Both the position numbers and the translations under genes were made by a program. From Escherichia coli O157:H7 (GTDB lineage: Bacteria > Pseudomonadota > Gammaproteobacteria > Enterobacterales > Enterobacteriaceae), in assembly GCF_013167455.1 (NCBI RefSeq), contig NZ_CP038328.1: a stretch of DNA of 64,000 nt, one strand, 5' to 3'. Below are positions 56,420 to 59,402 of this stretch, in pieces (the stretch's first letter is position 1; each line of letters begins with the position of its first letter). The notes under the pieces are model-generated. The model saw only the letters and a program-made list of their open reading frames with translations. It had not been told where the DNA came from and made no database searches.

Positions 56420-56440
56420 TATAATCCGTCGATTTTTTTT
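56420..56440 (+). promoter_or_regulatory. upp promoter -10 and initially transcribed T-tract (UTP-sensitive reiterative transcription)
   Basis: TATAAT at 56420..56425 followed by GATTTTTTTTG (8 T run). Confidence 0.65.
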
Positions 56441-56467
56441 GTGGCTGCCCCTCAAAGGAGAAAGAGT

Positions 56468-57179: not shown

Positions 57180-58469
57180 ATGACGCGCCGTGCTATCGGG
57201 GTGAGTGAAAGACCGCCACTTTTACAGACAATCCCGCTTAGTTTGCAACATTTGTTCGCCATGTTTGGTGCAACCGTCCTGGTGCCCGTCTTATTTCATA
57301 TTAACCCGGCGACTGTACTGTTATTTAACGGTATTGGAACGCTGCTGTATCTCTTCATCTGTAAAGGGAAAATTCCGGCTTATCTTGGTTCCAGCTTTGC
57401 CTTTATTTCACCGGTATTGTTACTGTTGCCGTTAGGGTATGAAGTCGCGCTGGGCGGCTTTATTATGTGCGGCGTGCTGTTCTGCCTGGTTTCTTTTATC
57501 GTGAAGAAAGCGGGGACCGGCTGGCTGGACGTGCTGTTTCCACCTGCGGCAATGGGCGCAATCGTTGCCGTCATCGGTCTGGAGCTGGCGGGCGTAGCTG
57601 CCGGTATGGCGGGTTTACTCCCGGCTGAAGGGCAAACGCCAGACTCCAAAACCATCATCATCTCTATTACCACCCTGGCGGTCACGGTTTTAGGTTCCGT
57701 GCTGTTCCGTGGTTTCCTGGCAATTATCCCGATTTTAATTGGCGTGCTGGTGGGGTACGCGCTCTCTTTCGCAATGGGAATTGTCGATACCACGCCGATT
57801 ATTAATGCTCACTGGTTTGCGCTGCCAACCCTCTATACGCCGCGCTTCGAGTGGTTTGCCATTCTGACTATTCTGCCAGCGGCGTTAGTGGTTATTGCCG
57901 AACACGTAGGGCACCTGGTAGTAACGGCTAATATCGTCAAAAAAGATCTGCTGCGCGATCCAGGTCTGCACCGTTCGATGTTTGCTAACGGCTTGTCGAC
58001 CGTGATCTCCGGCTTCTTTGGCTCCACGCCAAACACCACCTACGGGGAAAACATTGGCGTGATGGCGATCACCCGTGTTTACAGTACCTGGGTTATCGGC
58101 GGGGCGGCGATTTTCGCTATCCTGCTTTCCTGCGTCGGTAAACTGGCTGCCGCTATCCAGATGATCCCATTGCCGGTGATGGGCGGCGTTTCGCTGCTGC
58201 TTTATGGTGTCATCGGTGCTTCCGGTATTCGTGTTTTGATCGAATCGAAAGTGGATTACAACAAAGCACAGAACCTGATCCTGACTTCCGTGATTTTGAT
58301 CATCGGCGTCAGTGGCGCGAAGGTAAACATTGGCGCGGCGGAGCTGAAAGGTATGGCGCTGGCGACCATCGTCGGTATCGGCTTAAGTTTGATTTTCAAA
58401 CTGATTAGTGTGCTGCGCCCTGAAGAAGTGGTGCTGGACGCAGAAGACGCGGATATAACAGACAAATAA
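57180..58469 (+). CDS. uraA: Uracil:H+ symporter (NCS2 family)
   Basis: ORF track frame 57138..58469; start chosen at [16 protein letters not shown] (429 aa); multi-pass. Confidence 0.93.
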
Positions 58470-58563
58470 TGTACCGACCGGGCAGTGTTGCTGCCCGGTT
58501 CAAACATCATGGGATTCTGTGGTAAACTTCTCGCGATTTTGTGAAATCCTGGTTGAGGTATCT

Positions 58564-59265
58564 CTGAACACACCGGCACAGCTCTCTTTGCCACTTTATC
58601 TTCCTGACGACGAAACCTTTGCAAGTTTCTGGCCGGGGGATAACTCCTCTTTACTGGCCGCGCTGCAAAACGTGCTGCGTCAGGAACATAGCGGTTACAT
58701 CTATCTCTGGGCACGCGAAGGCGCGGGGCGCAGCCATCTGCTGCACGCGGCTTGCGCGGAATTGTCGCAGCGTGGCGATGCGGTGGGCTATGTCCCGCTG
58801 GATAAACGCACCTGGTTTGTTCCGGAAGTGCTCGACGGTATGGAGCATTTGTCGCTGGTCTGTATCGACAACATTGAGTGTATTGCAGGCGATGAGTTGT
58901 GGGAGATGGCGATTTTCGATCTCTACAATCGAATTCTGGAATCGGGCAAAACACGGTTGTTGATCACCGGCGATCGTCCACCGCGGCAGTTGAATCTGGG
59001 ATTACCGGATCTCGCGTCGCGACTCGACTGGGGGCAGATCTACAAATTGCAGCCACTTTCTGATGAAGATAAGTTGCAGGCGCTACAGTTACGCGCGCGT
59101 TTGCGTGGTTTTGAACTGCCGGAAGATGTGGGGCGTTTCTTGCTGAAGCGGCTCGACAGAGAAATGCGCACGCTATTTATGACGTTGGATCAGTTGGATC
59201 GTGCGTCGATTACCGCGCAACGTAAGCTGACCATTCCGTTTGTGAAAGAAATTCTGAAGTTGTAG
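58564..59265 (+). CDS. hda: DnaA-inactivating AAA+ protein Hda (probable CTG start)
   Basis: ORF track frame 58519..59265 (248 codons, GTG start at 58519); the 233 aa form starts at CTG 58564 ([14 protein letters not shown]); AAA+ Walker A-like EGAGRSHLL. Confidence 0.8.
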
Positions 59266-59280
59266 ATAAGGTGTTTATTG

Positions 59281-59373
59281 TCGGATGCGGCGCGAACGCC
59301 TTATCCGAACTACGCGAAGTTAATCCATAGAATTCGTAGGCCGGATAAGACGTGGCAAGCGTCGCATCCGGCA
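59281..59373. repeat. REP / BIME element
   Basis: tcggatgcggcgcgaacgccttatccgaactac ... gtaggccggataagacgtggcaagcgtcgcatccggca. Confidence 0.8.
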
Positions 59374-59402
59374 ATGTGCTTCAACTAGCGATGGAGCACA
59401 TC

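Follow-up and report, generated by a model that had tools for sequence, protein, structure and literature searches.

The GTG codon upstream of the CTG-initiated hda gene of Escherichia coli lies within an extended −10 promoter element

We conclude with high confidence that the DnaA inactivator Hda of Escherichia coli is made from the CTG codon at 58564, served by a GAGGU Shine-Dalgarno (SD) sequence, on an mRNA that originates at an extended −10 promoter and lacks the GTG codon that opens the longest frame of the gene. Positions refer to the window, the 64,000-nucleotide stretch of an E. coli O157:H7 genome that was analyzed, and the features of hda and of the uraA 3′ end described below all lie on its plus strand. 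The CTG start of hda is already known: it was established in 2008 and is curated in EcoGene, in RefSeq, and in the structural literature, and the observation as such is real but ordinary, with little novelty. The start codon, the transcription start site (TSS), and the ribosome signal were shown by others; the invariance of CTG and GAGGT, the lack of conservation of the frame of the upstream extension, and the conservation of the −10 block were established here. These observations add to the known start (i) the full conservation of GAGGT-N4-CTG across the order Enterobacterales, (ii) the placement of the false GTG within an extended −10 element, and (iii) a lead concerning a T-run at the transcription start.

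Evidence for the 233-residue form of Hda

Between 56.4 and 61.2 kb of the window, the genes occur in the order upp, uraA, hda, arsC (yfgD), and bepA, and the region under study is the 5′ end of E. coli hda. A 901-nt stretch spanning it (58400 to 59300) matched an E. coli O157:H7 genome at 100% identity; of 5,426 complete E. coli genomes, 5,425 carry it at 95 to 100% identity. The open reading frame of 248 codons extends from 58519 to 59265, with GTG 58519-58521 at its head and CTG 58564-58566 in the same frame; the hda coding sequence itself (233 amino acids and a TAG stop; NCBIfam NF005982, PDB 5X06) occupies 58564 to 59265. The first-pass annotation had described two alternative starts, GTG 58519 giving 248 amino acids and CTG 58564 giving 233 and reading LNTPAQ, and its coordinates and translation proved exact. 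Downstream of the gene, the hda-arsC intergenic region (59270 to 59395) carries palindromic GCCGGATAAG.../...CGCATCCGGCA units that by eye are REP/BIME-like.

Family models and structure are both in line with an N terminus at the CTG. The long frame matched the NF005982 profile over residues 14 to 248 (476.6 bits, cutoff 268) and the whole-protein Hda profile TIGR03420 (281.4 bits, cutoff 194.8). The two NCBIfam matches begin at residues 14 and 21 of the 248-residue form, which leaves the extension outside the family models. Chain E of PDB 5X06 was identical to long-form residues 16 to 248 apart from the first aligned residue, which is M in the structure and L as encoded by the CTG; the crystallized construct was a tag followed by MNTPAQ.... 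In the report of this Hda-clamp structure (Kim 2017), Hda is numbered 1 to 233 with the clamp-binding motif at 6-QLSLPL-11, which corresponds to 58579-58596 of the window. The QLxL motif of Hda homologues (40 to 65% identity) nearly always begins 1 to 8 residues from the N terminus, a position that agrees with the 233-residue form and not with the 248-residue form.

Published data favor the same codon. EcoGene 3.0 cites Su'etsugu 2008 (JBC) for the CTG start of hda (b2496 in E. coli K-12). Table S3 of Nakahigashi 2016 (PMC4909307) records a shift of the hda start by 45 nt, from 2616843 to 2616798, between the 2006 and 2014 GenBank records and, by manual inspection of tetracycline-inhibited ribosome profiling (TetRP), assigns the gene to category "3. 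2014" and not to the "multiple" category. According to the main text of that study, reads at 12 re-annotated genes were confined to the start sites of 2014; from the labels, we infer that category 3 comprises these 12 genes. In RefSeq/PGAP (annotation of two genomes), the hda coding sequence begins at the CTG equivalent to 58564 (WP_001307333.1, 233 amino acids), and no annotated feature covered 58519-58560 in any of 60 E. coli genomes chosen as a spread sample. Ribosome profiling with an initiation inhibitor, which the first-pass annotation had named as a check, is thus available in print and favors CTG, and the 233-residue protein that it had put forward agrees with TetRP, RefSeq, 5X06, and the comparison across genera.

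Conservation of the CTG and of its Shine-Dalgarno sequence

We compared the window with 80 orthologous Enterobacterales loci (81 sequences altogether) drawn from one-genome-per-species contigs. The set covers more than 30 genera, including Escherichia, Citrobacter, Klebsiella, Enterobacter, Kosakonia, Cedecea, Serratia, Yersinia, Hafnia, Rahnella, Erwinia, Pantoea, Tatumella, Brenneria, Pectobacterium, and others; because the 80 loci are phylogenetically related, counts over them overstate the number of independent events. The codon homologous to 58564-58566 was CTG in 80 of 80 loci. Among 135 columns in which the amino acid is invariant and the codon degenerate, the start CTG was the sole column with a single codon; in the other 26 invariant leucine columns, two to six codons were in use per column, and CTG made up 0.46 of the pooled codons. 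Upstream of hda, four conserved islands stood out in otherwise variable DNA: the 3′ arm of the uraA hairpin, TGTGnTAnACT, a CG(N)TTTT run, and GAGGT-N4-CTG.

The last of these islands contains the SD sequence GAGGT (58555-58559), which lies 4 nt upstream of the CTG and was invariant in 81 of 81 sequences. Spacers of 4, 5, and 6 nt separated it from the CTG in 74, 2, and 5 sequences, respectively. The calculated duplex of GAGGT with the anti-SD (−6.9 kcal/mol) was among the strongest 3.2% for the 20-nt windows sampled between 50000 and 63900 and was stronger than that of the SD of uraA (−5.8 kcal/mol). The first-pass annotation had held that no strong SD precedes either start. This stands for GTG 58519, upstream of which only GGGA is found (−4.0 kcal/mol; top 20% of the sampled windows and unremarkable), and is overturned for the CTG. 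The leader from 58535 to 58600 showed no significant structure (fold z = +0.58), and a structure-based model of start selection was therefore rejected. We also rejected an out-of-frame upstream open reading frame (GTG 58541 to TGA 58565-58567, overlapping the CTG), neither the start nor the frame of which is conserved; its start is replaced in Citrobacter by an ATG that shares the frame of the CTG and in many genera by TTGTAA.

The 15-codon extension between GTG and CTG behaved quite differently from the CTG itself. Its conservation across genera had been proposed in the first-pass annotation as a means of deciding between the two starts; in the 81 sequences the extension is not conserved, which favors CTG. 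The NTG homologous to the GTG at the −10 block fell in frames 0, 1, and 2 relative to the CTG in 17, 32, and 28 loci, respectively, and the upstream extension of the frame is what chance gives. Only 9 of 81 sequences had, at the −10 element, a canonical start codon in frame with the CTG and open up to it. The open stretch upstream of the CTG ranged from 3 to 63 codons, with indels and stops breaking the extension, and 31 of the 81 sequences had no ATG, GTG, or TTG between the nearest upstream in-frame stop and the CTG. In these 31, a canonical in-frame codon is next met no earlier than codon 9, in the clamp-binding motif or downstream of it. A dipeptide "EV" recurred in the translated extensions of many genera and was considered as a sign of a conserved N-terminal extension; this was rejected, the dipeptide being GAG-GTn, that is, the SD sequence read as codons.

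Within E. coli, 5,359 of 5,426 records were at least 99% identical over 58505-58570, which over 66 nt means identical; the remaining 67 fell in the 95 to 99% band, equivalent to one to three differences. Even in this species, strain SCPM-O-B-8794 (L003) carries an extra C in the leader at about position 1186 of its locus (AAATCCCTGG versus AAATCCTGG), placing the GTG out of frame. In the Citrobacter loci L005 to L011 (positions about 1177 to 1203), an insertion of 1 nt relative to E. coli brings an ATG (GATTTTATGAAATCC) into frame 8 codons upstream of the CTG. This ATG yields 241-residue forms (e.g., P0136) and would lie only about 5 to 6 nt from the predicted 5′ end of the transcript, with no SD.

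The upstream GTG is part of an extended −10 element

The GTG at 58519-58521 consists of a G followed by the TG of a conserved extended −10 promoter element. This TG (58520-58521) sits within the TGTGnTAnACT block and belongs to the sequence TG-G-TAAACT (58520-58528), in which TGn adjoins a −10 hexamer, TAAACT (58523-58528), that keeps A2 and T6. In 77 of 81 sequences, the 60 nt preceding the CTG contained the pattern TGnTAnRHT, at a distance of 43 to 48 nt from that codon. From the position of the conserved extended −10 element, we predicted a transcription start at 58535-58536, and a published TSS matches this position: Table S1 of Mendoza-Vargas 2009 (PMC2760140) gives hda a TSS at +17 relative to the GTG that was annotated as the start at the time (G58535 or A58536 in the window; frequency 3; comment "New; downstream gene"), which rests on three reads in one 454 data set. 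The same table assigns to it a sigma70 −35 box ("cGGTTCAAA," tgccCGGTTCAAAcatc) and a −10 box ("GGTAAACT," ctgtGGTAAACTtctc) with an 18-nt spacing and the entry "-10 ext (TG) yes"; the −35-like hexamer TTCAAA is at 58499-58504.

The evidence for this TSS is thin, and the other surveys available to us did not confirm it. The sole TSS listed there by Kim 2012 is a two-read TSS inside uraA, and the Cappable-seq tables, as far as they were available to us, hold no entry in the hda region. A consensus promoter and terminator scan called no promoters; by our own count, the hda promoter agrees with the consensus at 8 of 12 positions, and the scan requires 9 of 12. A literature search of incomplete coverage returned no paper on the hda promoter and none placing the old GTG inside an extended −10 element.

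With the transcript starting 16 to 17 nt downstream of the GTG, that codon is absent from the mRNA of the hda promoter. The false start is widely present because its TG is under selection, and it is not consistently in frame because nothing holds its distance from the CTG to a multiple of 3. We consider it unlikely that the TGTGnTAnACT block is instead the binding site of a regulator or an RNA element. Such a reading can draw on the failure of the promoter scan to call the block and on the hexamer's match to TATAAT at only four of six positions, but the block conforms to TGnTAnnnT and retains the critical A2 and T6, a TSS has been mapped 7 to 8 nt downstream, and PATSER independently assigned the same boxes. 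Nor did the region match any entry in Rfam. The idea that TGTGGTAAA is a DnaA box was likewise rejected, since on visual inspection the sequence lacks the A required at position 6 of the DnaA-box consensus, TGTGNAWAA.

Immediately upstream lies the 3′ hairpin of uraA (58476-58500; 11-bp stem ACCGGGCAGUG/UUG/CUGCCCGGU; −24.9 kcal/mol, z = −2.8), the probable uraA terminator, whose 3′ arm GCCCGGT is conserved in the Enterobacteriaceae. The 3′ end of this hairpin overlaps the −35 hexamer TTCAAA of hda (58476-58504 for the two together), and terminator and promoter thus share DNA. Its U-tract is poor, almost absent (UUCAAAC), which makes read-through from upp-uraA into hda plausible.

Alternative start codons

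Initiation at GTG 58519, as in the 2006 annotation and in the output of ab initio callers, would give a protein of 248 residues and is, in our judgment, extremely unlikely. Its appeal is that the frame is the longest one with a canonical start and that the 248-residue form is common in automatic annotation (P0001, 3510 member sequences). Against this, the TetRP category "3. 2014" reads as signal at the CTG site only, the mapped TSS is downstream of the GTG, anti-SD pairing upstream of it is weak (−4.0 kcal/mol), and its frame is not conserved, being shifted by 1-nt indels in E. coli L003 and the Citrobacter loci. The extension is also not covered by the Hda family models, and the clamp motif would come to lie 20 residues in, unlike its position in homologues. 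A start farther downstream, at the TTG of codon 9 (58588), has a negligible chance of being correct. Entries of the resulting 225-residue form are present in databases (P0070, P0111, and P0112) and codon 9 is TTG in 31 of 80 loci, but it is CTG in 49 of 80, no SD precedes it, and a start there would leave no function for the conserved GAGGT-N4-CTG.

A combination of starts, in which most Hda is initiated at CTG and a minor 248-residue isoform arises from GTG on transcripts reading through from upp-uraA, is very unlikely. Read-through is plausible with a uraA hairpin that lacks a good U-tract, transcripts bearing the GTG may exist, the GTG is in frame and open in E. coli, and Nakahigashi (PMC4909307) report dual starts for several other genes. 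However, hda is absent from the "multiple" category of the TetRP table, the GTG has no meaningful SD, and the frame is under no selection, a usable in-frame start being found there in only 9 of 81 sequences. Trace initiation at GTG on read-through transcripts, giving a trace of the long isoform, is a remote possibility that nothing supports.

Consequences for annotation

The prediction in the first-pass annotation that automatic annotation would pick the wrong start held for ab initio callers, whose 248-residue product P0001 represents 3510 Logan/ENA sequences, and failed for NCBI PGAP, which used the CTG in every genome sampled. PGAP draws on family and protein evidence and places the E. coli hda start correctly. 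In other genera, ab initio callers gave Hda lengths of 235 to 272 amino acids (e.g., 235, 238, 241, 243, and 258). NCBI entries for Hda from other genera are inconsistent, with 233 residues (CTG) or 235 residues (GTG), sometimes within one species; both a 233-residue "MNTPAQ" and a 235-residue "MLLNTPAQ" entry exist for Hafnia paralvei (P0043/P0044) and for Izhakiella australiensis (P0060/P0062).

The sequence GAGGTG-CTT-CTG was found in Yersinia, Erwinia, Pantoea, Hafnia, Pectobacterium, and Brenneria (L050, L051, L055, L058, L075 to L078, L080, and others, at 1190-1203; proteins P0012 to P0047). The 235-residue form begins at the GTG within this GAGGTG, that is, within the SD sequence itself, with no room for an SD. 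Since the CTG is invariant, we suggest that the 235-residue starts are two codons too long. The practical value of these results is a warning for annotation, as ab initio callers still give a 248-residue Hda in E. coli, and a rule, GAGGT-N4-CTG-AAY, that would harmonize Hda starts across the Enterobacterales. They also explain the persistence of the false start, the TG of which is that of the conserved extended −10 motif.

A model for hda expression and comparison with related systems

In the mechanism that best explains these observations, hda is transcribed from a sigma70 extended −10 promoter (TG 58520-58521, TAAACT 58523-58528) with a start at about 58535-58536. The resulting leader of 28 to 29 nt, U-rich and unstructured, presents GAGGU 4 nt before CUG 58564-58566, and pairing between SD and anti-SD positions the 30S subunit at the CUG. 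Initiator tRNA then decodes this codon as Met, giving MNTPAQ... and the 233-residue Hda, and the 15-codon "extension" amounts to an accidental open frame across promoter and leader. In E. coli reporters, CUG initiates at about 1 to 2% of the level of AUG (bioRxiv 063800). The strong SD and the invariant weak codon together most likely form a conserved device that keeps Hda scarce.

Two other E. coli genes offer comparisons. The second verified CTG-initiated gene listed in EcoGene 3.0, yfjD, is like hda a chromosomal gene with a true CTG start and a mis-annotated canonical start nearby; its CTG was predicted from conservation and inspection of the ribosome binding site (EcoGene 3.0). The mis-annotated start is a TTG downstream of the true start in yfjD, in contrast to the GTG upstream of it in hda. 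A different case is infC, which like hda combines a non-canonical start codon with a functional SD. In infC, which encodes IF3, an AUU start holds down or regulates the synthesis of a low-abundance regulator, and IF3 discriminates against such codons. The autoregulatory loop of infC has been demonstrated, whereas for hda we infer only a low basal efficiency of the CUG. E. coli K-12 hda (b2496) is the same gene with the same CTG codon, and the core finding is no different there.

The T-run at the transcription start is of interest for its resemblance to another promoter in the window. A run of at least three T's, preceded by a purine and starting 8 to 10 nt after the −10 hexamer, was present in 77 of 79 loci; in the window, A58536 is followed by TTTT (58537-58540), and 58523-58540 reads TAAACT-tctcgcg-A-TTTT-G. 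The promoter of upp (56420-56442), which is controlled by UTP-sensitive reiterative transcription, reads TATAAT-ccgtcg-A-TTTTTTTT-G. The two promoters (hda, TAAACTtctcgcgATTTTG; upp, TATAATccgtcgATTTTTTTTG) share a layout of −10 hexamer, GC-rich discriminator, purine start, and T-run, and hda may in this respect be likened to the UTP-sensitive upp, codBA, and pyrBI. The run is shorter in hda (mode of 4) than in upp (8), a literature search found nothing linking hda to UTP, and the likeness should be taken as a lead only. The T-run could serve in UTP sensing, as a U-rich translational enhancer bound by S1, or as an element for promoter escape. It seems to us improbable that 58536-58540 is a UTP-sensing reiterative-transcription element, with the invariant weak CUG as a second, IF3-sensitive layer. 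If it were, transcription of hda, and hence the capacity to inactivate DnaA-ATP, would respond to the supply of pyrimidine nucleotides.

On the present sample of sequences, the CTG start seems to characterize the Enterobacterales. A Morganellaceae-like locus (L083/84) keeps TGTTAAACT ... GAGGTAACT-CTG-AAC, and there the gene caller chose an upstream GTG. Three homologues at 52 to 64% identity (L085 to L087) have no CTG and were called with GTG or TTG starts, not ATG, which, as far as three loci can suggest, hints that weak start codons may be general to hda genes. In one of them, L086, an extended −10-like motif, TGTTACACT, lies upstream of the hda homologue.
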